DNA of 64,000 bases. Origin: an uncultured Armatimonadetes bacterium. GTDB lineage: Bacteria > Armatimonadota > Hebobacteria > Hebobacterales > Hebobacteraceae. Under the pieces are notes generated by a model. It did no database searches, had not been told where the DNA came from, and saw only the letters and a list, made by a program, of their open reading frames with translations. Of this stretch, positions 6,951-50,289 are shown piece by piece. The translations under genes and the position numbers were made by a program. Every line of letters starts with the position of its first letter. Position 1 is the stretch's first letter. The DNA is taken from the NCBI GenBank assembly GCA_963716175.1, contig OY970296.1:1293684-1357683 (forward strand), given 5' to 3'.

Positions 6951-7076
6951 CTAGAGCGCATTTCATAACCTACCGGCTGGCTGGCCGCACCACGCCCTCG
7001 CATGAAATGCGCCGGCCACGGCCTGACGTTGCGCAGTGCTGTTTCATAACCTCCCCTGGGAAGGTTATGAAACAGC
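6951..7076 (+). repeat. R1 structured repeat, copy 1 (126 bp, two hairpins).
   Basis: About 96% identical to 48215-48340. Hairpin 1 gcgcatttcat...atgaaatgcgc (11-bp stem, 35-nt loop). Hairpin 2 is the perfect palindrome gctgtttcataacct-cccctggga-aggttatgaaacagc. Confidence 0.85.
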
Positions 7077-7082
7077 TTCTAA

Positions 7083-7180
7083 CGAGCTTCGCCGAATGAA
7101 GTAACACGGCGAAGCTCAAGAGGCGGCCCAGACGGGCACAGGGCGATGTTCGCACATTACTTCGTTGTGCGAACATCATT
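7083..7180 (+). repeat. R2 paired-hairpin element, copy A.
   Basis: Hairpin 1 (7084-7117) has loop aatGAAGTAACa; hairpin 2 (7145-7177) has loop TTACTTCgt. The same architecture appears at 39076-39180 with different, compensatory stem sequences. Confidence 0.7.
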
Positions 7181-7182
7181 AG

Positions 7183-8703
7183 TCAGGCCACATCCTCGAG
7201 TCGCCGCAAGGCCTCCTGGGCCTCCTCGAAGCCCGGGGACAATTGGAGGGCGCGGGCAAAGCTGGCGCGGGCAGAGGCGAGGTCGCGGCGCGACTCCTGG
7301 ATCAGGCCCAGGTTGTAGCGGAATTCGGCGGCCTCGGGGAGCAAGCGCACCGCCTGCTGGGCCGGCCCCAGGGCGGCGTCATAGTCGCCGCCCGAGTAGA
7401 GGGCCATGGCGAGAGCGTCGTGGGCCTCTGCATTTTCCGGGTCGAGGCCACAGGCGCGCCGAGCCGCCCGCGCCGCACCTGCGAGGTCGCGGCCCTGGGA
7501 AGTCAGGGCGCGCGAGAGACCCAGGCAGAGCTCGCAGTCCTGCTGACCCAGCTCCCAGGCGTCGGCCATGGCGTGCTCGGCCTCCACCGGCTGGCCGGCT
7601 GCCTCCAGCGCCAGGCCCAAGTTGTAATGGACCCAGGGATCACCGGGAGCAAGCCGGGCTCCGCTGCGATAGTGCTCGGCCGAGGTCTCATAGAGGCCGA
7701 GCCCATAGTAGGCGAGGCCCAGCCCGCTGCAGGCCTCGGCGCTGTCCGGGCAGATGCGCTGCGCCGTCTGGTAGGCCTCGAGGGCTTCGTGGTGACGGCC
7801 CAGCTCGAGACAGGCGCGGCCGCGCTCGACCCAGATGTCGGAGTCGCTCGGGTCGAGCTGACCGGCCACTTCAAAGGCTGCGATCGCGGCCTCGTGATCG
7901 CCCAGCTCTCCGTAGGCCAGCCCGAGGTTGAAGCGAGCCACGGGATGGGTGGGGTCGAGAGAAAGCGCGTGCCGGTAGGAGCGGATGGCCTCAGGCACTT
8001 CGCCCAGCCCGCGGAGGGCGTTGCCCAGCTCGCAGGCGGCGGCGGCCCGGCCCTCCTCGTCCTCCTCCGGGTAGTGTTGCAGCGCTCGCTCCAGGTAGTG
8101 GCGCGCTCGCCGGCAATCACCCTGGGCGCTGTGGATTTGCCCGGCGGCGTAAAGCGCCTCATGCCACTCCGGCGCCAGCTCGCAGGCGCGCTCGAACTCG
8201 TGCCGGGCGCGGCCGCGATCGCTGAGCTGCTGGCTGGCCCAGCCCAGCCAGAGGCGGCAGTAAGCTTCGTCGCTACCCAAGGCCAGAGCGCGCTGGTACG
8301 CCTCCGCCGCCTGCTGGAACTCGCCTATCATGTAGTAAGCATCCCCGAGGTCGCGGTGCAAGCATGCGCTTAGCAGGACAGAGCCGCCCTGATTCTCTCT
8401 CACCCCCACCTGATAGTGGCCAATCGCCTCCTGGTATTGGCCCTGCAGGAACAGGACTTCGCCGAGCACGCGCCGGACCGCCGGGTCGGCAGCGGAGATC
8501 TCGACCGCCCGCTGCGCTAACCTCGTGGCCTCCTCCGTGGGCCCTTGCTGTGCCAGGGCCCAGGCCAGGGAAGTGAGCGCTTCCACGGAATCGGGGGCGA
8601 AGGCGAGAGCCTGGCGCCAGGCGAGCATGGCCTGCTCGCGCTGGCCGCTCTCCCACAGCGTCTTGCCGCGCTGATTGTCGCGATCGGCGTCAAGGGACTT
8701 CAT
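7183..8703 (-). CDS. TPR-repeat protein.
   Basis: Multiple 34-aa TPR-like repeats (AYY.G.Y..A...Y..AL.L.P). Confidence 0.8.
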   Translation of the reverse strand: MKSLDADRDNQRGKTLWESGQREQAMLAWRQALAFAPDSVEALTSLAWALAQQGPTEEATRLAQRAVEISAADPAVRRVLGEVLFLQGQYQEAIGHYQVGVRENQGGSVLLSACLHRDLGDAYYMIGEFQQAAEAYQRALALGSDEAYCRLWLGWASQQLSDRGRARHEFERACELAPEWHEALYAAGQIHSAQGDCRRARHYLERALQHYPEEDEEGRAAAACELGNALRGLGEVPEAIRSYRHALSLDPTHPVARFNLGLAYGELGDHEAAIAAFEVAGQLDPSDSDIWVERGRACLELGRHHEALEAYQTAQRICPDSAEACSGLGLAYYGLGLYETSAEHYRSGARLAPGDPWVHYNLGLALEAAGQPVEAEHAMADAWELGQQDCELCLGLSRALTSQGRDLAGAARAARRACGLDPENAEAHDALAMALYSGGDYDAALGPAQQAVRLLPEAAEFRYNLGLIQESRRDLASARASFARALQLSPGFEEAQEALRRLEDVA

Positions 8704-16440: not shown

Positions 16441-16514
16441 CGGGGCGTAGCGCAGCTTGGTAGCGCGCCTGCCTTGGGCGCAGGAGGTCGCGTGTTCAAA
16501 TCACGCCGCCCCGA
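16441..16514 (+). tRNA. tRNA-Pro (anticodon UGG).
   Basis: Cloverleaf: acceptor CGGGGCG/CGCCCCG, D-arm GCGC-AGCTTGGTA-GCGC, anticodon stem CCTGC/GCAGG with loop CTTGGGC, T-arm GCGTG-TTCAAAT-CACGC, discriminator A; no encoded CCA. Confidence 0.85.
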
Positions 16515-35930: not shown

Positions 35931-37392
35931 CTACCCCTTCATCACCCCCAGCGGCTTGAGCATCGCCACCATCTTCGAGATGCCGGCGCCGTGGCAGACG
36001 CGGACGACCTGGTGGACGTCTTTGTAGGCCTCGGGCATCTCCTCGGCCAGGCCCTCCCGGCTGGCGGCGCGGGCGTAGACGCCCTGGGCGGCCAGCTCCT
36101 GGGCGATGTCGCGGCCCCGGGCGGAGCGGATGGCGGCGTGACGGCTGAGCAGCCGGCCTGCGCCGTGGCAGGTCGAGCCCCAGGTCTGCTCCATCGCCTT
36201 CTGAGTGCCAACGAGAAGATAGGAAGCGGTTCCCATGTCACCAGGCACGATCACCGGCTGGCCGGTCTTCTGATGGAGCGGGAGAAGCTGGGGGTGGCCG
36301 GGGCCAAAGGCGCGCGTGGCGCCCTTGCGGTGGATGCAGAGCCGCTTCGTCTTGCCATCAACCGGATGCTCTTCGAGCTTTGCCACATTATGCGCGACAT
36401 CGTAGATGATCTCGAGGCCCAGCTTCTGCCGCGCCGGTCCCCAGCACGCGCTCGAAGGCCTCCCGGGTCCAGTGGGTGATGCACTGGCGGTTGGCCCAGG
36501 CGTAGTTGGCGGCGGCGGCCATGGCGGCAAGGTAGTTCCGTCCTTCCGGGGATGACACCGGGGCGCAGGCGAGCTGGCGATCGGGCAGAGAGATCTGGTA
36601 CTTCTGCGTCGCCTTCTGCATCTCGATCAGGTAGTCGTCACACACCTGATGGCCCAGGCCGCGGGAGCCGGTGTGGATCATCACCGTGATCTGATCCAGA
36701 TCGGTGATGCCCAGGGCGGCGGCGATCTCGGGATCGTGGATTTCGGCGACGGTCTGGATCTCCAGGAAGTGGTTGCCGGAGCCGAGGGTGCCGAGCTGGG
36801 GGCGGCCGCGCTCCTTCGCCCGGTCCGAAAGCAGGGCGGGGTCGGCGCCCTCGATGCGGCCATTGCTCTCGATGTGCTCCGCATCCTGAGACCAGCCCAT
36901 GCCCTGGGAGATGGCCCACTGCGCGCCTCTGACCAGCACGCGGTCGAGCTCGGCCTTGTCCACGCGCACCCGGCCCTTCTCGCCCACCCCGGAGGGCACA
37001 TCGCGGAAGATCTGGTCGATCAGGTCCTTGACGCGGGGCTCGACCTCGGCGCGGGTGAGGTTAGTGCGCAGCAATCGCACCCCGCAGTTGATGTCATAGC
37101 CAACGCCGCCGGGGGAGACCACGCCCTGCTCCACGTCGAAGGCAGCGACGCCGCCGATGGGAAAGCCATAGCCGTAGTGGATATCGGGCATGGCCATGGA
37201 GGGCCCCACGATGCCGGGCAGGCAGGCGACATTGACCACCTGCTCCAGGGAGTTGTCGGACTTGATGTCCTGCATCATCTCGGCCGAGGAATAGACGATG
37301 CCATCGGTGCGCATCTCCGGCTTGTAGCTGCGCGGGACGCGCCAGCGATAGGGATCTATGCGCTCGATTTTTCCGGACCAGGGCTTGCCCAC
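35931..37392 (-). pseudogene. rtcB: RNA-splicing ligase RtcB, split by a frameshift near 36420 at a G-run.
   Basis: N-terminal 334 aa and C-terminal 199 aa RtcB halves sit in different frames (GSGNHFLEIQ...; IIYDVAHNVAK...HRKGATRAF...GSTCHGAGR). Confidence 0.7.
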
Positions 37393-37457
37393 GCCAGTTC
37401 ACCTCCGGGCCGCGGCTACTTCTCATGTCAGCAGTGGTGGCGACCGGACGCGGCCAG

Positions 37458-38147
37458 CTACATACTACGGGAGAGCACAGCGAAAGGCAAGGACGAGGGC
37501 CGCCGATGTGTGACCACGAAGATCAGAGAAGAGAACAAGCTGCTCCGGGAGAGCTGGTTGATCTCACCATAGCTCCAGGAGACCAGGTCCCCATTCCCCT
37601 CCTCCGCCCCGGTGGGGTTGTTCGCCGGGTCGTAGCTGTAGGTGAAGATGGAGATCACCGTCCCGTCCGACTTGCGGTTGCGCACCGCCTGGATTCGGCC
37701 GGCATCGTCGTATTGGGTCTCGGCGCGGCTGCTGTTGCCATAGGTCATGGTGGTGGGCCGGCCCAGGTCGTCGTACTGGTAGGTGCTCACCCCGCCGGTG
37801 CCGCGGTTCACCACCGCGGTTATCCAGTCGCGGGCATTGTAGCTGTAGTCAATGTAGCTGCCCGGCCGCGTCATCCGCGTCCGCCGCCCGCCGTCGTGAT
37901 AGGTGAAGCTCACCGTCACGCTGTTGGGATTCGTCGCCGAGGAGAGCTGGTTCCGCCCGTTGTAATCATAGCTGAACACGTCCTCTCCCGTGACCTGCAT
38001 GCTCGACACCAAGCCGACTCCGTTATACTGATAGGTCGTCGTCTTGGACGTCTCCGCACTCACCGTCACGGATTTCAGCCATTTACTCGGATAGTAGACC
38101 TGGGTCGTGGTGCCCGATGCATCCCGCGTCTCCGTGATTGCTGTCCC
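37458..38147 (-). pseudogene. Rhs/YD-repeat protein fragment (copy 1); no start codon, bounded upstream by in-frame stops.
   Basis: YQYNGVGL, YDYNGRNQL, YQYDDLGRPTTMTY, YSYDPANN repeats; positions 37497-38036 are duplicated at 38796-39437. Confidence 0.6.
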
Positions 38148-38174
38148 TGATTCCCCAGGACTGAGTGTTTCCTA

Positions 38175-38555
38175 TCACTTTCTCTTCACTAACCTGGCCA
38201 GCAGCAATGCTAATACTACCGGTATCCCTAGTAGCCCGGCCCAATAGCTATAGTCCCTCGGAAGGCGATATTTCAGCCACGGACCCATCAGAAGCGACGG
38301 AAGGAAAAAGGCCAGGTTGGTGATAACCGCTGCCCACAGGGGCACGACCAGCCCGCGGCCCTCCACCGCAGTCAACACATAGAAAGAACCAAGACCCGCC
38401 AGCTCCAGGAGGAGTCCCAGGTATGCAATGAACAGAGGCGTGTGCTCTGCAATCCAACGTGCTCCTGGAAGCCGCCATCCCTCCATAGCGAGTATGACCC
38501 AGAGCACGAGGAGTATCCCGAACGTCTCGGGTAGTTTCCGGCTACGCCGGCTCAT
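38175..38555 (-). CDS. Four-TM small membrane protein between the two Rhs fragments; possibly an immunity protein.
   Basis: Hydrophobic helices; position downstream of an Rhs C-terminal fragment. Confidence 0.35.
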   Translation of the reverse strand: MSRRSRKLPETFGILLVLWVILAMEGWRLPGARWIAEHTPLFIAYLGLLLELAGLGSFYVLTAVEGRGLVVPLWAAVITNLAFFLPSLLMGPWLKYRLPRDYSYWAGLLGIPVVLALLLARLVKRK

Positions 38556-38724
38556 AACGCCACACCGTCTGTCACACCAGCCCTTCTTCCTTCTCACTCA
38601 GCGGAGACACTTGCTACACTTTTCCATGCAATGCAGGGATTCGCCGGCTAGCAGCAGCGAACCGACCCCAGAGGCCGGCTCAGCCCAAGGGGCGATTTTC
38701 TCGGCCAGCCGAGGAACTAGGGCT

Positions 38725-39437
38725 TTAGAGTACCTCGCCCACGCCCTGAACCTTCTGTCCGTGAAGTGGTAACAGATTCTGGCGGTCCAGCGGGGGCCGC
38801 CGATGTGTGACCACGAAGATCAGAGAAGAGAACAAGCTGCTCCGGGAGAGCTGGTTGATCTCACCATAGCTCCAGGAGACCAGGTCCCCATTCCCCTCCT
38901 CCGCCCCGGTGGGGTTGTTCGCCGGGTCGTAGCTGTAGGTGAAGATGGAGATCACCGTCCCGTCCGACTTGAGATTGCGCACCGCCTGGATTCTGCCGGC
39001 ATCGTCGTATTGGGTCTCGGCGCGGCTGCTGTTGCCATAGGTCATGGTGGTGGGCCGGCCCAGGTCGTCGTACTGCTAATGAATGTCGCCCAAAGAAGTA
39101 ACGGGCGACATTCATCAGAAAGCCAGGGAATGCCTGAAGAAAGACGCTCGCGCAATGTTACTTCATTGCGCGAACGTCGGTAGGTACTCACCCCGCCGGT
39201 GCCGCGGTTCACCACCGCGGTTATCCAGTCGCGGGCATTGTAGCTGTAGTCAATGTAGCTGCCCGGCCGCGTCATCCGCGTCCGCCGCCCGCCGTCGTGA
39301 TAGGTGAAGCTCACCGTCACGCTGTTGGGATTCGTCGCCGAGGAGAGCTGGTTCCGCCCGTTGTAATCATAGCTGAACACGTCCTCTCCCGTGACCTGCA
39401 TGCTCGACACCAAGCCGACTCCGTTATACTGATAGGT
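38725..39437 (-). pseudogene. Rhs/YD-repeat fragment (copy 2), 5'-truncated and interrupted by a 105-bp R2 insertion.
   Basis: Near-identical to copy 1 except for the insertion at 39076-39180 and a divergent tail. Confidence 0.55.
39076..39180 (+). repeat. R2 paired-hairpin element, copy B, inserted into Rhs fragment copy 2.
   Basis: Absent from the otherwise identical copy 1 (gtcgtactg|gtaggtg). Hairpin 1 loop aaaGAAGTAAC; hairpin 2 loop GTTACTTC (exact reverse complement). Confidence 0.8.
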
Positions 39438-39628
39438 TGGAGTGAACCCCTCTGACTGGACAGTTCAAGGGGTCGCCACTATGCGAGTCGACGCGGAGGG
39501 CCGCTAGCTCTCGTTGTGGTGCCAGGGACTTGAGGACGGCGCGGATCCCCACGCCGGCGCCTGGAGCCACTGGCGCCAGCACCAACGTCAGAAGAACCAA
39601 CCTCCGGCGGCTCAGCATAGCATCTCTC

Positions 39629-40654
39629 CTATGGGCATCGGAGCCACGACGCGTCCTCCCCGCGGACGAGTGTCAGGGCCTCACCGGACTCTGTGTTTAT
39701 GGCCCTCACGAGTGACAGCCCTTCCACCGCGTAAGGGCCACCAAAGACCCCACGGGAGGGGTGCCTTCGCTGGAAGTGGCGCTCCGTGAATAACACCCAC
39801 CTCTCGTCAGGGCTCCAGTGGATGTCCTCGATCTGTGTCACCTCTTTCGTGAAGACCGGCAAGGCCTGCACCGTCTGCCGCTTCAGGCCACTCGCTGTAA
39901 CCACCGCGAGCGACCGCCCCATATCGGCGACCGCCAGCATCTGGCCCGATGGGGCAAGGGAGACATAAGACGCAATGGCCAGCTGCCCGCGCGGTACGCT
40001 GAGACTTGCCCCGTCAAGGGTCAGTTCGAGTGGCGGCAATGAGCGGGGATCCTGCAACCAGGAGCGGATGTCCTGCGGCACAAGCGTCCGCGGAAGATGC
40101 TGCAGTACCTGGCTAATGCCACTCGCGCGCTCTTGCCGGCGTTGTTCGACTGTATGCCTACCGCTGAGCGCAACCGCACCAGAGTTCATGTTCCACACTA
40201 GTTCGCGGTATCCTTTGTGCCCTTTCCACTCATCCGTGACCCCAAGGAGCACCTGCGCGTTGTCCAGCCACATCGGATAGTCGAAGAGGAATGAGAACTC
40301 GGCTTTTAGGCGCAAGGACATGGCGGCCTCATCCGCGTCATCCAGATCCACCAGCGTGAAGGTGTACCGCCCTTGCCCGCTGCTCCACAAGAATTCCTCC
40401 TGCACCACGAGCGCGCGACGACCATCGGGGGAAATCGAGTAGAAGGGACGCGACAGCAGGCGCGCCTCCGGGTTACGCCATCGCCAGAGGACACGCTCAT
40501 ACTCGCTTGCGTACCGGCACAGCCGCAACTCGCCCCCTGGCCGCTCCATCGTCTGGTAAAGCAGACTCATGGTCGGGACGCTCTCGTTCTGCCGGCCCTG
40601 TCCGCTCGCAGCGTGCGCGGTCAGGAGCGCGAACATGGCCAAACTAGCCAGCAT
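39629..40654 (-). CDS. Secreted TolB-like (PD40) beta-propeller protein of unknown function.
   Basis: Signal peptide MLASLAMFALLTAHAASG; SISPDGRRALV and HWSPDERWVLF propeller motifs; lower-GC region. Confidence 0.45.
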   Translation of the reverse strand: MLASLAMFALLTAHAASGQGRQNESVPTMSLLYQTMERPGGELRLCRYASEYERVLWRWRNPEARLLSRPFYSISPDGRRALVVQEEFLWSSGQGRYTFTLVDLDDADEAAMSLRLKAEFSFLFDYPMWLDNAQVLLGVTDEWKGHKGYRELVWNMNSGAVALSGRHTVEQRRQERASGISQVLQHLPRTLVPQDIRSWLQDPRSLPPLELTLDGASLSVPRGQLAIASYVSLAPSGQMLAVADMGRSLAVVTASGLKRQTVQALPVFTKEVTQIEDIHWSPDERWVLFTERHFQRRHPSRGVFGGPYAVEGLSLVRAINTESGEALTLVRGEDASWLRCP

Positions 40655-40673
40655 CAGGGGCCACCAACCAGCA

Positions 40674-41165
40674 TCACCTCGACGAGGCCCTCGGGTTGCC
40701 CGCGTCTCCGGCATTGTTGAGCAGGTTCTGCAAGCACTGCTTTTCAGCGCCATACGCCGCTTCCTCGCTTGGGTACTCGTCGGCTTGCTCTCCGAAACCG
40801 TTATGGGCCTCACATTGCTGCCGATGGGTTGGTTCATGTGCGTTAACCAAGCACTCCTTCACACAGGCTTGCTCGGGTTTCAGCTGACGCCACGCGTCGC
40901 AGTAGAACGTCCCAGTCTTCACCTTCCACACGCCTGACTGGCTGCACTTCTGCTTCTCATACGCGCAGCAACATGCCGTGCACACGTACCAGCGACTGAC
41001 TGATCCACCCGGGTCGAACCAGTGCGCGAGTATCTGGTCGATCTCTCGGATGCGGGCATGGATGGCTTGCTGCTGGTGAGAGGAACGGTCATCAGTGCAC
41101 GTGGTAGGTTCGCACACGTCCTTGTCTGTCAAACACGACAAAGAGGATCTCCACAGCCAGATCAT
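40674..41165 (-). CDS. Cys-rich hypothetical protein; the start is uncertain and it overlaps the upstream gene.
   Basis: More than 14 Cys in about 150 aa; no clear start downstream of the upstream stop. Confidence 0.2.
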   Translation of the reverse strand: MIWLWRSSLSCLTDKDVCEPTTCTDDRSSHQQQAIHARIREIDQILAHWFDPGGSVSRWYVCTACCCAYEKQKCSQSGVWKVKTGTFYCDAWRQLKPEQACVKECLVNAHEPTHRQQCEAHNGFGEQADEYPSEEAAYGAEKQCLQNLLNNAGDAGNPRASSR

Positions 41166-41490
41166 GCAGTTCGTAAACCCAGACTTCATCCTCTTTTGAA
41201 GCGTTGAGCCTGACACCGTACTTGGCCTCGACGGCACCGGGCGACATCACGGACTCCGGCATCCCCAGCCTTGCGTGGATCTCACCCTGGGTGAATCCGG
41301 GCACGACCAAACGCTTAACGTGCGACCTCGCGAGCCGGGGCGAGATACGCCAGAGACAGAAAGAGTTCAGCCCCACCCACAAGATCGCCACGCTAATCAC
41401 CAGTGAGGTCGCGACTATCACTCGCCGCACCCACTTCGCTCGCCGTAACCCGTCGCCCCACCAACTCGATCCAGCGCTCTGTCGTGACAT
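41092..41490 (-). CDS. Membrane-anchored SmpA/OmlA (BamE)-like small protein.
   Basis: N-terminal TM helix; pattern GFTQGEIHARLGMPESV...WVYEL...ILFVVFDRQGRVRTY resembles the BamE fold consensus. Confidence 0.45.
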   Translation of the reverse strand: MSRQSAGSSWWGDGLRRAKWVRRVIVATSLVISVAILWVGLNSFCLWRISPRLARSHVKRLVVPGFTQGEIHARLGMPESVMSPGAVEAKYGVRLNASKEDEVWVYELHDLAVEILFVVFDRQGRVRTYHVH

Positions 41491-41909
41491 ACCTGCTACC
41501 CCCTAGCTGGACTGCACCCCTGGGCCTGGACAGAGCGGGGCAAGATGCGCCACCCTCTGATGAGGCGGGTTCGTGCTTCGCAGCGAAGCGCTCCTTCGCA
41601 GAGTAGCGTAGGAAACCACCTCGCTCTCGCCGCCGCCGGTGAGCTGCATGGTGGAGTGGCTAGACCTGCTGCGCAGGCCGCCATGGCGGTCTCTGACGGC
41701 GACATAGCCACCCAGGGCCTCCCCTCGACTCCGCTCGGGCCGGCCGTCACGGGAACCGGGGCCCGGCCGACGCGAATACTACGCTCACGCACAGGGAAAT
41801 ACAAGCACGGCTGCCGGCGCGCTGTAGCCGCCATAGCGCCTTAGGCGTAGCTATATGCCCGGCTCACGCCATGCAGCCCGGAGGACCCTCCTGAGGCGGG
41901 CAAGCCGGG

Positions 41910-41940
41910 CTCGCACAAAAGGGCGGGATGAATCCCGCCC
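41910..41940 (-). terminator. Rho-independent terminator downstream of the GT4 and manC/manB genes.
   Basis: Minus-strand read: GGGCGGGA-TTCA-TCCCGCCC followed by TTTTGTG. Confidence 0.65.
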
Positions 41941-44448
41941 CTACAGCTCGGCTTGCAGGCGCTGGATCTCCTGAGCGTATTGGTGCACCAGGGCGTCGGC
42001 GGTGGCCTGGTCGCGGCTCTCGGCGCGGACGTGGAAGACCGGGCCGGAGACATCGGGGAGCACCAGGGCCCAGCCCGCCGGGACGTGGATCTTGAGGCCG
42101 TCGAGCTGCTCCACGGAGAGGTCGCGGGTCTCCTCGTGCAGGCGTCTCATCACCAGGCCCTTCTGCTCCCAGGGGCAATCCACTTGCAGGTAGGCGCGGT
42201 AGTACCTGGGCACCCGCGCGCACACCTCGCCCAGCGTCTGACCGGTGACGGCGAGCAGCTCCAGCAGCTTGCCCAGGGCGAGCATGGCGTCGAACGCGGG
42301 CAGGAAGCGGGGGAAGATGAACCCGCCGTCAACGTCGCCGGCGAAGGTGAGCTCGGGATCGGTGCCGGCCGCCTCCATCAAGGAGCCGGCGTCGGCGCGG
42401 GTGCGGATGGCCTGGGCGTGATAGCGCTGGCAGACTTCCTCCACGCCGGAGGTGGCGCTGAACGGCACCGCGACCCGGGCGCCGGAGTCACCGCGCTGGA
42501 GCACCAGGTCCATGAAGCAGAGCAGCAGGTCATCGCTCATCACCCTGGCGCCGTGCTCGTCAACGGCGGCGAAGCGATCGCCGTGGCCGCCCACGAGGAG
42601 GCCGAGGTCGCCGTGCAGCGCGCGCACCACCTCGCCCAGCTCGCCGACGCGCTGCTCCCGCCTCACCCAGGCCTCGTGGGAGCGAGTGGGATCAACGAAG
42701 GCGTTGACCGCAGTGGACTCGCAGCCCAGGCGGCCCAGCACCAGGGGCATGAGCAGACAGAGGGGCCCGAAGGCGTAGTCCACCACCAGCTTGGGGGCGC
42801 GGCGGCGGATGGCGTCGGCGTCGAGGAAGTTGAGGAAGTCCTCGGTGTAGTACTCCACGGTGCGGCCCAGGAACTCGAGTCCTCCCACCGCCTCGCGCGG
42901 GGCGCGGCGGAAGTCCTGGCGAAAGAACATGTTCTCGATCTTGCGGGCGGCGGCGCGGGTGAGGTTCTTGCCACTGCCGTCGAAAAACTCAATCAGGGTC
43001 TGGGTAGGGTCCGAGGGCGACACTGAGACATGCACTCCGCCAGCCGCGCCCGAGATGTCCGCCATGTGGCGGGCGACGGCGCCGGGCATGGTGCGCAGGT
43101 CGAGCACATTGGCGCCTACCGACATCAACCCCGAGATCATGGCCCGCTTGACCATGCGGGAGGTGAGGTGGGAATCGCGGCTGGTGATCACCTGCGCGCC
43201 GGCCGGCAGGTAGGCCCCATAGGCGGCGGCCAGCCCGGCCGCGAACTCGGGGGTGATCTCCACATTGGCGAGGCCGCTGACGCCGCTGGCGCCAAACAGC
43301 GTGCCCGGCCACTTGGTCCCCCAGATCAGGCTCATGGTGACCTTGGAGCCGCGGTCGGTGACTTTGTCGGGCCAGATGCGGATATGGGGCATGACCACCG
43401 TGCCCTCCTCCAGCAGGCATCGGTCGCCCACCACCGCACCTTCATTGATGGTGACGTGGCGCTTGGCGACCACGTTGCGGCAGACGGTGGCGGCGTTGAG
43501 CCGGCTGCCCGCGCCCAGGTAGGTCCCGCTCCAGACCACAGAACGGGTCACCACGGCGCCGGCCTCGACTACGCAGTTATCGCCTATGATGGAGTAGGGG
43601 CCGATCTGCGCCTCAGCACCAATGCTGCAGCCATGGCCGATGAGCACCGGCGGCAGCAGGCGGGCGGCGTGATCAACCGCAGTGGCCCTGCCCACCCAGA
43701 CCCCGTCGGCCAACCTTTCGCCGGGGAGATCCACCGCCACCGCGGCTCGCAGGCAGTCGTGATTGGCGGCGCGGTACTGCTCGAGGTTGCCGACATCGGT
43801 CCAGTAGCCCTCGGCGACATAGCCGCAGAGGAGCTGGCCTTCATCCAAGAGGGCCGGAAAGAGATTCTGGCTGAAATCGAAGGGCCGCTCGGGGTTCACC
43901 CGGTGAAGCACTTCCGGCTCCAGGATATAGATGCCAGTATTGACCGTATCGGAGAACACCTCCCCAGCGCTGGGCTTCTCCAGGAAGTGGCGCACTCTGC
44001 CATCGGGATCGGTGATCACCACTCCGTACTCCAAAGGGTTGGGCACCCGTGTGAGCACGAGGGTGGCGGCGGCCCCCCGCTGTTGGTGGAACTCGATGGC
44101 CGGGCGGAGGTCGAAGTCGGTGAGGGCGTCGCCGCTGATGACGAGGAAGGTGCCGCCCAGTTTGTCCATCAGCCGACGCACGCTGCCAGCAGTGCCCAGA
44201 GGGATATCCTCGACCGCGTAGGAGAGCTGCATGCCCCACTCCGCGCCGTCCTCGAAGTAGCTCTCCACCTCATCGGCGAGATAGTGGAGGGTGGCGAAGG
44301 CCTGGGTGACCCCGAGCCGCGCTAGCAGTGACATGATGTGGGCCATGATGGGCCGGTTGGCCACCGGGGCCATGGGCTTGGGGAGATCACAGGTGAGGGG
44401 CCTGAGTCTAGCCCCTTCACCTCCTGCCATCACTACCGCTGGGATCAT
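41941..44448 (-). CDS. Bifunctional mannose-1-phosphate guanylyltransferase / phosphomannomutase (NTP-transferase + LbH + PGM/PMM domains).
   Basis: N-terminal GGEGARLRPLT nucleotidyltransferase motif; hexapeptide repeats; C-terminal PGM/PMM domains. Confidence 0.85.
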   Translation of the reverse strand: MIPAVVMAGGEGARLRPLTCDLPKPMAPVANRPIMAHIMSLLARLGVTQAFATLHYLADEVESYFEDGAEWGMQLSYAVEDIPLGTAGSVRRLMDKLGGTFLVISGDALTDFDLRPAIEFHQQRGAAATLVLTRVPNPLEYGVVITDPDGRVRHFLEKPSAGEVFSDTVNTGIYILEPEVLHRVNPERPFDFSQNLFPALLDEGQLLCGYVAEGYWTDVGNLEQYRAANHDCLRAAVAVDLPGERLADGVWVGRATAVDHAARLLPPVLIGHGCSIGAEAQIGPYSIIGDNCVVEAGAVVTRSVVWSGTYLGAGSRLNAATVCRNVVAKRHVTINEGAVVGDRCLLEEGTVVMPHIRIWPDKVTDRGSKVTMSLIWGTKWPGTLFGASGVSGLANVEITPEFAAGLAAAYGAYLPAGAQVITSRDSHLTSRMVKRAMISGLMSVGANVLDLRTMPGAVARHMADISGAAGGVHVSVSPSDPTQTLIEFFDGSGKNLTRAAARKIENMFFRQDFRRAPREAVGGLEFLGRTVEYYTEDFLNFLDADAIRRRAPKLVVDYAFGPLCLLMPLVLGRLGCESTAVNAFVDPTRSHEAWVRREQRVGELGEVVRALHGDLGLLVGGHGDRFAAVDEHGARVMSDDLLLCFMDLVLQRGDSGARVAVPFSATSGVEEVCQRYHAQAIRTRADAGSLMEAAGTDPELTFAGDVDGGFIFPRFLPAFDAMLALGKLLELLAVTGQTLGEVCARVPRYYRAYLQVDCPWEQKGLVMRRLHEETRDLSVEQLDGLKIHVPAGWALVLPDVSGPVFHVRAESRDQATADALVHQYAQEIQRLQAEL

Positions 44449-44465
44449 GGCTTCAGCCCCCTTTT

Positions 44466-45752
44466 TCAGCTTCGATCTGGAGTTTCGTCAGACATGAGAT
44501 AGCGAGGCCGGATACCGGGTCCGGCGGCTGGGGCGGCGAGGCGGGCGGCGGCCCGCTCGGATTGGCTCACGACTTCCTGGTAGATGGCGAGAGTTTGCCT
44601 GGCGATGCCGTCCCATTGGAAGCGCTGCTCTACTTCGCGGCGGGCGGCGCGGCGGAGACGATTGGCCAGGGCCGGATCGGAGAGCACGAGATTGATGCCC
44701 CAGGCCAAGGAGTGAGGGTTGTTCGCCCAGGTCTGAAGGCCGGTCTGGCGGTGGCGAACGACCTCGCGGAAGCCGCCGATGTCGGAGGTGACCAGGGGCA
44801 CGCCGGCCGCCATCGCCTCCAGGGCGACGATGCCGAAGGGTTCGTACAGGCTGGGCAGGGCGACAACATCAGCGACGGCATAGAGGCGAGGGAGATCCTC
44901 CTCTGGCAGGAAACCAGTGAAGGCAACCTTGTGGCCCAGACCCAGGCCAGCGGCGCGCTCCCGGAGATGGCCCTGCCAGCCCCCGCCTGCCACCACGAGC
45001 TTGGCCTCGGGATGGGCCGCGATCACCTCCGGCATGGCCTCTATCAGCACCTCCACGCCCTTCTCCCGCACCAACCGCCCCACGAAGAGCACGATCTTCT
45101 CTCTCGACCCGGCCCAGCGGGCGCGGAACCCGGCCAGCTCCCTCGGGCGGTCGGCGCACTGGAGGCGGGCGGGATCCACACCGTTGGGCACCACGCAAAC
45201 CTTGTCCGCCGGCACCCTCAGGCCCGAGGTTAGCTCCCCGGAGGTGGCCTGAGAGCAGCAAATGACCCGCCAGGCATCGTAAGTCAGGAGCCATTCCAGG
45301 GAGTGGATGTAGCTCTGGAGCGGGGTATGGATGCCCTGATTGCGCCCGGCCTCGGTGGCGTGGATGGTGGCCACCAGGGGAAGGCGCTGGCTGTGTTTGA
45401 GGGTGCGGGCGGCGAAGGTCACCAGCCAATCGTGGGCGTGAACCAGGTCGTAGCTGACCTCCCCCTCCCCCAGGATGCGCTCCAGCAGGAGGAAGTTGAG
45501 CTGATGGATATCGGAGATGAAGTCCAGGGGGTTCACAGGGTTGGGCCGGGCGCGGAGCACCCGGACCTCCCCTTCCCCTGAGGGGATGATCTCCAGCTCG
45601 GGGGCGCCGGCGTGGTGTGCGGTGACCACGTCCACCGTGACCCCCGTGGCGGCCAGCGCGCAAGAAAGCTCGCCCACATGGCGGGCAATGCCCCCAATGA
45701 TGCGCGGGGGAAACTCCCAAGAGAGCATCAGGACGCGCGTGGGCGGCTCCAC
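44466..45752 (-). CDS. GT4-family glycosyltransferase.
   Basis: GT-B GT4 pattern (EFPPRIIGGIARHV...; C-terminal EPFGIVALEAMAAGVPLV). Confidence 0.85.
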   Translation of the reverse strand: MEPPTRVLMLSWEFPPRIIGGIARHVGELSCALAATGVTVDVVTAHHAGAPELEIIPSGEGEVRVLRARPNPVNPLDFISDIHQLNFLLLERILGEGEVSYDLVHAHDWLVTFAARTLKHSQRLPLVATIHATEAGRNQGIHTPLQSYIHSLEWLLTYDAWRVICCSQATSGELTSGLRVPADKVCVVPNGVDPARLQCADRPRELAGFRARWAGSREKIVLFVGRLVREKGVEVLIEAMPEVIAAHPEAKLVVAGGGWQGHLRERAAGLGLGHKVAFTGFLPEEDLPRLYAVADVVALPSLYEPFGIVALEAMAAGVPLVTSDIGGFREVVRHRQTGLQTWANNPHSLAWGINLVLSDPALANRLRRAARREVEQRFQWDGIARQTLAIYQEVVSQSERAAARLAAPAAGPGIRPRYLMSDETPDRS

Positions 45753-47815: not shown

Positions 47816-48342
47816 CGTCGCTCTCCCTGTGGCAGTGCCGCCACGGTCGCCTACCTGTTCGCTCCTCCCCGGCCAATTCCTTTCCCAACCCAGACCGGTC
47901 CAACCACCTCGTTCCCAGCCAGACCAGCCGACGTTGCTGGAGAAGGTCCGTCGTTCCCCAGAGGAGGTACAGGTCTTGTGGAGCCGAGAGTTGGGGATGG
48001 AGTAGTAGCTGTACTTAGAGAGATAATAATAATAATGATAAGGGCTGTGGATCAGGTGAAAACCACAGGGTAACCCGATGAAGTGGGCGGTTGTTATCCC
48101 CTGGCTGAAGAAGGAAGGCTGCGGATGGTTGTTGATAGAGTGAGCGGTGGCTAGCCGAGAGGTCCGGATTCCCGTGCCTGGCCCGGTGATGCACTTGTTG
48201 TCCACAGGCAAAGGCTAGAGCGCATTTCATAACCTCCCTGCTGGCTGGCCGCACCACGCCCTCGCATGAAATGCGCCTGCCACGGCCTGACGTTGTGCAG
48301 TGCTGTTTCATAACCTCCCCTGGGAAGGTTATGAAACAGCTG
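47816..48342. promoter_or_regulatory. oriC: oriC candidate in the dnaA-dnaN spacer.
   Basis: DnaA-box-like 9-mers TGTGGATCA (48046-48054), TTATCCCCT (48094-48102), TTGTCCACA (48197-48205). AT-rich tract gagataataataataatgataag at 48018-48043. R1 repeat copy 2 sits at 48215-48340. Confidence 0.55.
48215..48340 (+). repeat. R1 structured repeat, copy 2, within the dnaA-dnaN spacer.
   Basis: About 96% identical over 126 bp to 6951-7076. Confidence 0.85.
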
Positions 48343-49710
48343 CTAGCCTTCGGTACGGAGCCTGGCGCCCAGCTCGTTGATCAGCGCTTGCACAGAGCTG
48401 TCCTGCATCTGCTGTCTGATCTTGGTGCAGGCGTGAATGACGGTGGAGTGGTCTTTGCCCCCGAAAGCGCGGGCGATGCTGGGGAAGGAGGCACTAAGCA
48501 GCTCGCGGCAGAGGTACATGGCAATCTGGCGGGCATGGACCACGTCCTGGGTGCGGGTCCGCGCGACCAGCTCGGCGATGGTGAAGTTGAAGTGCTCGGC
48601 CACCAGTTGCTGGACGCGGCTGATGCTGAGGGGTTGTTGGTGGTCCTCGAGAGAGTGATCCCGGAGCTGCTCCGCGGCGAGGGAGAGAGTGATCTCGGCG
48701 TGGGTGAGAGAGGCGGCGGCCAGCACCTTGATGAGGGCACCCTCCAGCACCCGGATATTGGACTTCACCACCTTGGCGATATAGCGAAGGACCTCGTCCG
48801 GGACGGGGATGCTCTCCGCTTGGGCCCTACGGGCGAGGATGGCCAGTCGGGTTTCCATATCCGGCGGCTTGATATCAGCGATCAGCCCCCACTCAAAGCG
48901 AGAGCGGAGCCGGTCGTCCATGATCTGGAGGTCCTTCGGGGGGCGGTCGCTGGTGATGACGACCTGGCGGCCGGTCTCGTAGAGCGTGTTGAAGACCTGG
49001 AAGAACTCGGATTCGGTGCGCTCCTTGGCGGCGATGAACTGAATATCGTCCACCAGCCAGAGGTCCACCTCGCGATACTTCTTGCGGAACGTACCGAAGC
49101 GATCGTCCCGAATGGAGGAGACGACGTGAAAGGTGAAGGTATCGCCGGAGACGTACTGGACGCGAAGGCCGGGATGCTTGGCTGCGCTGTGATGGCCGAT
49201 GGCCTGCATGAGGTGAGTCTTGCCCAGGCCCACGCCGCCATAGAGGAAGAGGGGATTATAGGAGTCGCCGGGCTGGTTCGCGACCGCGAGCGCGGCGGCC
49301 TGAGCAAACTGATTCCCCTTGCCCACCACGAAGTTCTCGAAAGTGTACTTGGGATTGAGGGGAGTGGTGAGGAGGGCCTCGCTCTCACCGCGGGAGCCGG
49401 AGGCCGGGGGCCGCCTGCGGCGGGGCACCTGCTCTTCGAGGGCGAGGTCGAGCTGGGCGAGTTCGAAGTGCGCTTTCAGGGGTCGGCCCACCACTTGCTC
49501 GAGGGCGGCCTCGATGGCCTTGAGGCCATTCTTCTGGAGCCAGTCGCGCGCGAACTCACTGCCGACGGAAAGCTCGAAGGTGTCCTGACCGAGGACCTCG
49601 GGACGTACGTGCTTGATAGAACTCCCGAAAGAGGGGCGAGAAAGCTTGCTGCCCAGCGCCCTTAGCACCTGCTCCCACACCTGCTGCACCGACGGCTGCG
49701 ACTCCCGCAT
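48343..49710 (-). CDS. dnaA: Chromosomal replication initiator DnaA.
   Basis: AAA+ Walker A GGVGLGKTHL, Walker B LWLVDDIQF, C-terminal DNA-binding domain. Confidence 0.95.
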   Translation of the reverse strand: MRESQPSVQQVWEQVLRALGSKLSRPSFGSSIKHVRPEVLGQDTFELSVGSEFARDWLQKNGLKAIEAALEQVVGRPLKAHFELAQLDLALEEQVPRRRRPPASGSRGESEALLTTPLNPKYTFENFVVGKGNQFAQAAALAVANQPGDSYNPLFLYGGVGLGKTHLMQAIGHHSAAKHPGLRVQYVSGDTFTFHVVSSIRDDRFGTFRKKYREVDLWLVDDIQFIAAKERTESEFFQVFNTLYETGRQVVITSDRPPKDLQIMDDRLRSRFEWGLIADIKPPDMETRLAILARRAQAESIPVPDEVLRYIAKVVKSNIRVLEGALIKVLAAASLTHAEITLSLAAEQLRDHSLEDHQQPLSISRVQQLVAEHFNFTIAELVARTRTQDVVHARQIAMYLCRELLSASFPSIARAFGGKDHSTVIHACTKIRQQMQDSSVQALINELGARLRTEG

Positions 49711-50037: not shown

Positions 50038-50289
50038 CTTCCCCGACCCTCACGGGCACCCTCATAACTCACCCAAATCCGACGGCGCGGACTATAGCAT
50101 ACTGCCCACTCATTGGCAAGAGTTTTTTTGCCCTACAAAGTGATCGCTAGTATAGCTAGCAGGCGCCCACTATGTCATCGTTTGCGATCACCGCGCGCGA
50201 GCAGGTGAGCAGCAAGAGACATGGTAGAAGAAAGCGCGCACGCGCAATCTTACCGCGCACGTTGGTACCGCGCAAGAGGAGGCCGCGAA

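Follow-up and report, generated by a model that had tools for sequence, protein, structure and literature searches.

The stretch analyzed here, 64,000 nucleotides of contig OY970296.1 from an uncultured Armatimonadetes bacterium (assembly GCA_963716175.1; hereafter the window), carries rtcB and the gene for an 835-aa NDP-sugar pyrophosphorylase/phosphomutase separated by 4548 bp (37393-41940), with all genes of the region on the minus strand (Table 1). Within the 2 kb nearest to rtcB are two nearly identical fragments of an Rhs shell made of YD repeats, the end of a toxin domain, and a gene for a small four-helix membrane protein (4TM). Together they form 1.4 direct-repeat units of a 1297-bp unit composed of 45 YD codons, YD fragment, junction, toxin relic, and 4TM gene. 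We hold with good confidence that these 2 kb are the remnant of a decayed Rhs (YD-repeat) toxin/immunity cassette in which the 4TM gene is intact.

Table 1. Features of the inserted segment and related elements in the window, with their order along the minus strand and the GC content at third codon positions (GC3). ORF, open reading frame.
Feature	Positions	Strand	Order on minus strand	GC3	Remark
Inserted segment (islet)	37393-41940	-			between rtcB and the 835-aa NDP-sugar pyrophosphorylase/phosphomutase gene
rtcB	35931-37392	-	8		split by +1 frameshift; left boundary of the insertion
Unique sequence, 100 bp	37393-37493	-	7
Repeat copy 1	37494-38036	-	6	0.83-0.92	mid-shell YD fragment (about 37541-38036) and 47-nt non-YD tail
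45 further YD codons	38037-38171	-	5		in frame with copy 1, unique to copy 1
4TM gene	38175-38555	-	4	0.65	putative Rhs immunity gene, intact; 126 aa from ATG 38555; ORF open to GTG 38597
Toxin relic	38598-38801	-	3	0.71	last 67 codons and stop of Rhs C-terminal domain; GGPRWTARICYHFTDRRFRAW...CMEKCSKCLR*
Repeat copy 2	38791-39437	-	2		YD fragment and tail as in copy 1, split by 104-bp insertion, frameshifted
Miniature element A, 102 bp	39079-39180	-			two long hairpins, imperfect inverted ends; TA at 39181-39182 and 39077-39078
ORF64, 64 codons	39424-39618	-	1		AGGAGAG ribosome-binding site, signal-peptide-like start
ORF341, 341-aa hypothetical	39629-40654	-		0.76	hydrophobic N-terminus; ORF open to 40837; annotated as 341 aa in source record
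Cys-rich ORF, ~147-187 aa by start codon	40674-41189	-		0.71	ORF extends to 41237
ORF132, 132 aa	41092-41490	-		0.71	N-terminal membrane anchor; identical protein called on Logan contig L081
Element A2	7082-7179	-			diverged relative of A; covariance model from A alignment, 51 bits
Element C, 126 bp, first copy	6954-7079	-			subterminal inverted repeat TTTCATAACC
Element C, second copy	48218-48343	-			as first copy
YD fragments				0.81-0.92	host-like
Host genes				0.83-0.88

Alignment of the two copies revealed that 37494-37781 and 38791-39078 are 98% identical and that 37778-38036 and 39179-39437 are 99.6% identical, so that segments of 543 and 647 bp differ by six mismatches in total and by 104 extra bp in copy 2. 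This confirms the initial annotation of this DNA, made from the letters and reading frames alone, which had described two YD copies of about 540 bp around a gene for a four-transmembrane protein. The YD fragment matched Pfam RHS_repeat (PF05593; 1.5e-21 over three stretches) and TIGR01643 (5.4e-13), and against the NF041261 RHS_core model (1261 positions) it covered 527-714, the central part of an Rhs shell. Its homologues in a 5.8-billion-protein database (P0002-P0013) are all YD proteins, 31-68% identical, and P0013 has the shell-end motif; the 45-codon segment at 38037-38171 is homologous to DASGTTTNVYYPSQWLK...SKTITYQYNG in P0002-P0006. Neither copy has a start codon: the YD frame of copy 1 opens immediately behind the TGA TAG terminating the 4TM gene, and that of copy 2 opens at a stop just upstream of 39437. 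The 4TM ORF and the copy-1 YD ORF share a reading frame and are parted by TGA TAG alone (38175-38180), which could be coincidental, with odds of 1 in 3, or a trace left by an event that joined the units.

Shell repeats were thus recognizable at the locus, and a complete shell with an N-terminal region and a start codon was not found. The shell-end motif (RYYDPxxGRF ... PxxxxDPxGL) does not occur within the window and is present at the homologous loci L177 and L178; the 64-kb window holds no other RHS sequence, and no large rhs gene could be reconstructed at the locus by correcting frameshifts. The initial annotation had said that its reading would fall if the YD pieces proved to be parts of an intact large gene, and this is not the case. 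By their alignment the fragments are mid-shell pieces and hence would not be classical orphan modules of a C-terminal region (CT) and immunity gene (rhs-CT/rhsI): the lack of a start codon and the presence of an immunity gene agree with such modules, whereas the sequence homology lies in mid-shell and part of the CT is missing. The earlier description of orphan remnants of a polymorphic toxin locus therefore stands as far as Rhs remnants are concerned, but not in the classical sense of the orphan module. A diversity-generating retroelement was considered as the origin of the near-identical copies and rejected, as the six mismatches are few and show no specificity for adenine, and a reverse transcriptase is absent. 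That the duplication is a mis-joined or wrongly expanded repeat in the assembly is extremely improbable. The sequence does come from an assembled genome, and an independent Logan contig (L081, run ERR10755944) ends at 40632, before the repeats; however, the copies differ by six substitutions and the 104-bp insertion and each has unique flanks, they are separated by 754 bp of unique sequence that includes a conserved gene in intact form, and the source contig is 4.56 Mb long.

The initial annotation was right that the YD pieces lack a start, opening at internal stops, but in reporting no toxin domain it overlooked the relic located between copy 2 and the 4TM gene. The open frame 38601-38801, which differs from that of the YD fragment, reads GGPRWTARICYHFTDRRFRAWARYSKALVPRLAEKIAPWAEPASGVGSLLLAGESLHCMEKCSKCLR*, and its stop (38598-38600) lies 42 nt before ATG 38555. 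When the toxin domains of three metagenome loci were compared with the window by tblastn, that of L178 matched with 66% identity (E 3e-25), that of L177 with 62% (7e-22), and that of L180 with 56% (9e-17); by blastn, the relic region showed 65% identity over 193 nt. All three domains come after ..RYY.P..GRF..DP...DP.GL. The family is about 130 aa long and Cys-rich, with the pattern ..YYSC..C..GGGP..AR..YHFTD.RF.AWG..S..LVPR....I.PWAE..SGVG......ES..CM.KC..C, in which the cysteines (YYSC..C ... C.xKCxxC) are accompanied by a hydrophobic SGVG.....ES stretch. The domain had no match in Pfam, NCBIfam, PADLOC, PHROGs, or (by sequence) PDB. What is left in the window corresponds to the last 67 of the ~130 residues, and no intact toxin was found. 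The deletion junction falls at about 38802-38845, partly within the 47-nt non-YD tail common to both copies; in copy 1 this tail contains the junction and the first codons (..GGP) of the relic. The shell end and two-thirds of the toxin thus appear, from these alignments, to have been deleted at the locus.

The copies could instead be a working reservoir of silent orphan cassettes that recombine with a full-length rhs gene elsewhere to swap specificity, and not a product of decay. Orphan rhs-CT/rhsI arrays are well known (PMC3150448), a related array exists in L182/L183 (described below), and repeats that are 99% identical would allow homologous recombination. However, the fragments are of mid-shell origin (RHS_core 527-714) and lack the shell end and DPxGL, the toxin is cut to its last 67 codons so that no complete toxin is there to be swapped in, copy 2 is broken by a mobile element, and a partner rhs gene is absent from the 64-kb window. 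We regard such a reservoir as very unlikely and favor a decayed cassette.

The ORF between the YD copies (38175-38597, with ATG 38555 as the probable start) encodes the 4TM protein, for which AlphaFold2 gave four long helices (pLDDT 73), in agreement with the four transmembrane segments first proposed. A word-indexed protein search with this ORF was empty, while an exhaustive HMMER scan of 1.84 billion representative proteins found six full-length homologues of 126-146 aa that are 34-46% identical and have the motif EGWRLPGARW in common. The protein had no match in Pfam, NCBIfam, PADLOC, PHROG, or PDB, and a PDB fold search gave nothing below E = 5. Three of the six homologues lie behind Rhs toxin domains. 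In L177, the homologue is found 47 bp after a gene ending in ..GARYYNPAHGRFTIQDP..AADPEGL and a C-terminal domain of ~150 aa, and is itself followed by an orphan rhs fragment; in L178, it is 13 bp after a 259-aa TEN_YD-shell protein of the same architecture, whose toxin domain occupies residues ~125-259; and in L180, it is 10 bp after a homologous C-terminal toxin domain. The order of toxin and then 4TM, with gaps of 10-47 bp, is therefore conserved at three independent metagenome loci, where the small ORF directly downstream of the toxin end co-varies with the toxin family, as an rhsI gene would.

In the canonical Rhs arrangement, the toxin-encoding end is followed by the immunity gene (PMC3150448). 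Since its homologues lie 10-47 bp after intact toxin domains, the 4TM gene occupies the classic immunity position, and we infer that the 4TM protein is an immunity protein, as the initial annotation had suspected. It is the sole intact part of the Rhs cassette. Most likely, judging from these contexts, it persists as an orphan immunity gene guarding against the cognate toxin from neighbors. The retention of orphan immunity genes after toxin loss is a general feature of polymorphic toxin loci, and the present locus is alike in having an intact immunity-type gene, here with a putative protective role, beside a destroyed toxin gene. A membrane-embedded immunity protein suggests a membrane-acting toxin, and the combination of a Cys-rich domain and a membrane partner hints that the target of the cognate toxin may be the membrane.

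To place the cassette in its genomic setting, two relatives with enough flank were used for synteny, L003 (CP070816) and L004 (Candidatus Hebobacterum abditum), each ~75% identical at the protein level. In both, rtcB starts 86-127 bp after the orthologous NDP-sugar gene and encodes an RtcB of 486-489 aa that is 74-75% identical to the two rtcB halves of the window; the best loci for the 835-aa NDP-sugar protein are 73-76% identical and belong to Armatimonadota. Because rtcB directly follows the NDP-sugar gene in these relatives, the 4.5-kb segment 37393-41940 is an insertion between two housekeeping genes that are adjacent in related Armatimonadota. The right-hand junction is reproduced by Logan contig L081, which is 99.9% identical to 40632-45463; one indel in that contig splits the NDP-sugar gene, which is whole in the window.

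Composition sets the segment apart as well. Outside the islet, GC in 500-bp windows has a mean of 0.673 (standard deviation 0.031; ~67% for the whole stretch), compared with a mean of 0.61 (minimum 0.568, maximum 0.65) for windows starting at 37250-41000; GC is 0.609 for 37494-41490 and 0.617 for the full islet. The GC drop over about 4 kb reported in the initial annotation is thus real, and the uniform GC and codon usage that it had named as grounds for giving up its reading were not observed on computation. In codon usage, five ORFs lie below the host genes (GC3 of 0.65-0.76 versus 0.83-0.88), while the YD fragments are host-like. The low total GC of the latter, whose first codon positions have a GC of 0.49, is due to repeats rich in Tyr, Asn, Thr, and Ser and not to foreign codon usage. 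In the classical pattern of E. coli rhs genes, the shell is GC-rich and the toxin/immunity part is lower in GC, and this pattern is reproduced at the locus. In its absence from syntenic relatives and its atypical composition, the segment resembles a genomic island. The dip at 37.3-41.5 kb is not unique, as shorter low spots occur at 47.7-50 kb: GC falls to 0.56-0.59 in places between 47750 and 50250, one such spot overlaps a copy of element C (48218-48343), and a weak covariance-model match lies at 50201-50276. This stretch may be another variable spot.

Several observations weigh against a decayed, horizontally acquired Rhs cassette. No integrase, tRNA, or flanking direct or boundary repeats were found at the insertion, and no recombinase was found among the ORFs scanned; the sole tRNA of the window is at 16441. 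The homologues in L175, L176, and L179, three of the six, have no adjacent toxin, on contigs shorter than 2 kb. Neither the toxin nor the 4TM family has an annotated relative in Pfam, NCBIfam, PADLOC, PHROGs, or PDB. The host-like GC3 of the YD fragments means that a resident rhs gene, and not a foreign donor, could be their origin, and the three or four ORFs upstream, which show no connection with Rhs systems, may be independent cargo. Some of these points would also fit a segment that is ancestral and was deleted, once or independently, in the lineages of the two relatives, with its low GC reflecting relaxed selection and amino-acid composition: the comparison relies on just two relatives at ~75% protein identity, the YD fragments are host-like in GC3, and the flanks lack an integrase, a tRNA, and att-like repeats. 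Against such an ancestral segment are the tight 86-127-bp rtcB junction in both relatives, the GC3 of four or five segment ORFs at 0.10-0.20 under that of host genes, the near-orphan status of these low-GC3 ORFs in the 5.8-billion-protein database, and the occupation of variable regions by Rhs cassettes at the related locus L182. We consider it unlikely. The view that the module was horizontally acquired and is now decaying, which the initial annotation had put forward, finds support in the synteny break, the immunity position of the 4TM gene, and the lack of an rhs gene that can be rebuilt.

For this decayed cassette, we propose the following history. The ancestral gene would have consisted of a YD shell, a shell end with the DPxGL motif, and a C-terminal toxin of ~130 aa, followed by a small four-helix immunity gene. 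An internal deletion would then have fused mid-shell sequence ending in ..YGEINQLSRSS to the final third of the toxin domain, destroying the toxin and leaving the immunity gene whole. The resulting unit of 1297 bp (YD fragment, toxin relic, and immunity gene) would next have become 1.4 direct-repeat units; since the copies are 99% identical, the duplication would be recent. Finally, a 102-bp nonautonomous transposable element would have entered copy 2 after the duplication. The present layout could have arisen by a tandem duplication trimmed at both ends, by integration of a circularized unit through homologous recombination, or by a rolling-circle-like copy; the data do not discriminate among these three routes.

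The locus resembles the orphan rhs system described in PMC3150448 in its YD shell, in 5'-truncated fragments without start codons, in a variable CT after the shell-end motif (as seen in L177 and L178), in a small gene directly downstream in the immunity position, and in a GC content of the toxin/immunity part below that of the shell. It differs in that only a piece of mid-shell and the final third of the toxin are left in the window and the DPxGL junction is lost, in that it holds 1.4 units of a 1.3-kb repeat and not a series of different orphan cassettes, in its Armatimonadota-like host, and in toxin and immunity families without Pfam, NCBIfam, or PDB entries. The closest YD homologue on a long contig (L182/L183; JGI Ga0315280, ENA ERZ27248180) lies within an array of at least five orphan rhs shell-ends, indicating that variable rhs arrays are typical of the family. 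This array (L182 5100-13600 and L183) comprises shell-end and CT modules with small genes between them, the mid-shell YD fragment P0006, and a 52-aa integrase fragment, and it gives the impression of a mostly preserved counterpart of the type of locus that has decayed in the window.

The 104-bp difference in length between the YD copies results from the insertion of a mobile element, A, into copy 2. As an RNA, the insert folds into two long hairpins and a small one (-60.7 kcal/mol, z = -9.5). The idea of a known structured RNA found no support, as the insert had no Rfam match; Rfam gave no match in 37000-42000 at E<=1, and in the whole window one tRNA alone reached the gathering threshold. A scan of metagenomes (JGI contigs) with the second hairpin returned 92 loci, and 82 hits carry the conserved loop, among which 53 are distinct full-length copies with unrelated flanks. 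With these 53 sites and a diverged copy in the window, A is a multi-copy element, as expected for a miniature transposable element with inverted repeats (MITE); a scan of viral contigs was empty. The aligned block of A copies is sharply bounded (..CTA/C N GACGTTCGCGCAATGAAGTAACATTGCGCGAACGTC..GATGAATGTCGCCCATTACTTCTTTGGGCGACATTCAT/TAG.., with slashes at the edges), and an alignment of 52 copies revealed that both hairpins are maintained by compensatory changes. Scoring for intrinsic terminators picks out the first hairpin together with the TTTCTT that follows it. Hairpin 2 retains a G-T pair in its lower stem in 45 of the 52 copies. The hairpin loops are exact complements, GAAGTAA and TTACTTC, and are conserved even in the diverged element A2. 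A kissing interaction between these loops was examined and rejected, as 20 broken cells were found against one compensatory cell and the 93.6% pairing is due to conservation and not to covariation; judging from the alignment, the loop pair would rather be an inverted motif recognized by a protein.

How A inserts was judged from its ends and flanks. It is most likely an IS630-like terminal inverted repeat element that duplicates TA at CTAG targets, and we favor this over insertion without duplication. With TA taken as the flank on both sides, the ends of A are imperfect inverted repeats that match in register at 16 of the first 30 positions (16/26 in a shift scan, versus 3-10 at other shifts), and those of A2 match at 18 of 30. 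The flanks are reverse-complement symmetric, with counts of A13 C12 G3 T24 versus A12 C18 G3 T19 at position -1 and of 7/21/13/11 versus 8/22/13/9 at position -2, the picture that a palindromic (N)CTAG(N) target would give, and 44-50 of 52 copies show the pattern C-TA...TA-G. The window has 53 CTAG sites where 195 would be expected, a four-fold depletion, and copy 1 contains six CTAC and zero CTAG. The paralogous empty site in copy 1 reads CTAC, and under TA duplication, copy 2 would have acquired a TAC->TAG change before the insertion.

Alternatively, the insert would span 104 bp (39076-39179) located 3' of CTAC, placed there without target duplication by a single-strand mechanism like that of IS200/IS605 palindrome-associated elements. 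Copy 1 offers the exact empty site for it (ACCTAC/CAGTAC), CTAC precedes 46-50 of 52 copies, long hairpins at both ends are kept by compensatory changes with the conserved G-T pair on one strand only, and a tandem copy in L131 follows CTAG. We initially preferred this model because of the exact empty site and downgraded it once the inverted ends and symmetric flanks had been measured. In addition to the in-register inverted ends of A (16/30) and A2 (18/30) and the symmetry at -1 and -2, the sister families B and C found on the same contigs consist of inverted-repeat elements with TA at their flanks, and no Y1 transposase was found in 720 kb of element-bearing loci. Insertion by a single-strand route is thus possible but the less probable account, and TA duplication at CTAG is retained as the preferred one. 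The element-free allele of copy 2 would read ACCTAGCAG under TA duplication and ACCTACCAG without duplication. All-against-all clustering of the ORFs in the 720 kb of metagenome loci that bear the element recovered no transposase of any kind, and gave only SLH, DUF1559-like, and other paralogues.

As stated in the part of PMC2170065 that cites Tenzen & Ohtsubo 1991, elements of the IS630 family insert at TA, preferring CTAG, and duplicate TA. Element A is like IS630/Tc1-mariner MITEs in being ~100 bp long, noncoding, and high in copy number with imperfect inverted ends, in having TA on both sides with C before and G after in a symmetric target context, and in lying directly behind stop codons, which is where a genome of 67% GC retains tetramers with TA. 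It is unlike them in that the inverted ends are ~60% identical with poorly conserved outermost bases, each end itself forms a hairpin of 15-17 bp whose loop (GAAGTAA / TTACTTC) is conserved, the sole paralogous empty site is CTAC and not CTAG, and no transposase was found in the 720 kb of loci. IS200/IS605-derived palindrome-associated elements and GTAG-tagged repetitive extragenic palindromes (REPs) are mobilized by Y1 (RAYT) transposases (PMC3733652, PMC3333891). A resembles these as a small hairpin-dominated repeat downstream of genes with a conserved tetranucleotide beside a hairpin, for which insertion without duplication is possible. However, it is not a GTAG-tagged REP, which would be a palindrome of 20-40 bp with an unpaired GTAG at the 5' end: its tag is CTAC on the 5' side of the first hairpin, which is the wrong side and of opposite polarity, and A, a composite of 102 bp whose inverted ends are in register and whose target is symmetric, is a poor fit to strand-specific single-strand transposition. 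The hairpin ends with the GAAGTAA loop might display a transposase-binding site in a novel manner or serve as an integral terminator.

Related elements occur in the window and in the metagenome contigs. The stems of A2 differ from those of A while the loops are identical (GAAGTAA / TTACTTC); its context is C-TA...TA-G, and it starts four bases after the TGA of the ORF 7183-8703. Both ends of element C form a hairpin, and its flanks read CTA...TAG. Each of the two copies directly adjoins a stop codon, and that at 6954-7079 also abuts A2. In the metagenome contigs, the C end sequence GGTTATGAAATGCGCTCTA often immediately precedes A or B copies. Element B is ~120 bp long with clear terminal inverted repeats (CAGAKTCTCTTGMATCA..) and a TA duplication (L128, L157, L162, L144, L165, L083, L103). 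Its end sequence is CAGAKTCTCTTG; it nests within A at CCTAG in either orientation, is also found at the TA where A and C end, and the unpaired hairpins of A come only from such nested insertions. Three groups of contigs (L109/L152/L168, L147/L149, and L103/L112) have the same flank on one side of an A copy and different flanks on the other, reflecting either recombination between A copies or chimeric assembly at the repeat. The 102-bp element, A2, and C may form a group of undescribed stop-codon-hugging hairpin MITEs in Armatimonadota-like genomes.

The remainder of the islet carries further ORFs. ORF64 enters the start of copy 2 in another frame, had no family match in Pfam or NCBIfam, and may be the start of a former gene. 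The ORFs at 39629-40837, 40674-41237, and 41092-41490 are present as first described, but two assignments made for this group found no support. The supposed PD40 beta-propeller, ORF341, had no support in Pfam or NCBIfam: the profile search proposed for it yielded no family beyond a meaningless match (E = 0.074) to the Atxe2 isopeptidase family, and its AlphaFold2 model, largely of beta strand, is of too low a quality for a judgment (pLDDT 48.8). ORF341 is nevertheless a real gene; its one homologue (P0018; 36% identity across 93% of the length) lies in an unrelated setting. A BamE-like protein likewise found no support in profile searches. The Cys-rich ORF had no family match in Pfam, NCBIfam, PADLOC, or PHROGs and is probably coding, with a GC3 of 0.72-0.73 in its own frame versus ~0.5 in the other two (41190-40831); ORF132 had no family match in Pfam or NCBIfam. 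A scan for sigma-70-type promoters across the islet gave zero sites.

At the left boundary, the frameshift in rtcB that had been noted initially was verified. A three-frame view and alignment to the RtcB proteins of L003 and L004 place one extra base in GGCGCGGCAG near 36425, at about codon 320, so that the halves are encoded by the ORFs 36388-37392 and 35931-36530 and cover Pfam RtcB positions 1-268 and 267-426. The extra base (36420-36430) lies outside any long homopolymer, and a true pseudogene and an assembly error are both possible.

Taken together, these findings represent ordinary biology and do not challenge current understanding. We see an even chance that both the pair of a ~130-aa Cys-rich CT with its four-helix partner and the group of hairpin MITEs (the 102-bp element, A2, and C) are undescribed, and even if they are, neither would be surprising. 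The putative toxin/immunity pair, defined by sequence and without annotated relatives, is directly testable. The highly conserved elements of ~100 bp mark gene ends and break metagenome assemblies in Armatimonadota-like organisms. The locus as a whole illustrates, for a phylum that has been little studied, the usual course of a polymorphic-toxin cassette, which would run from acquisition at a variable site through an internal deletion in the toxin, duplication, and hits by mobile elements to the survival of the immunity gene.

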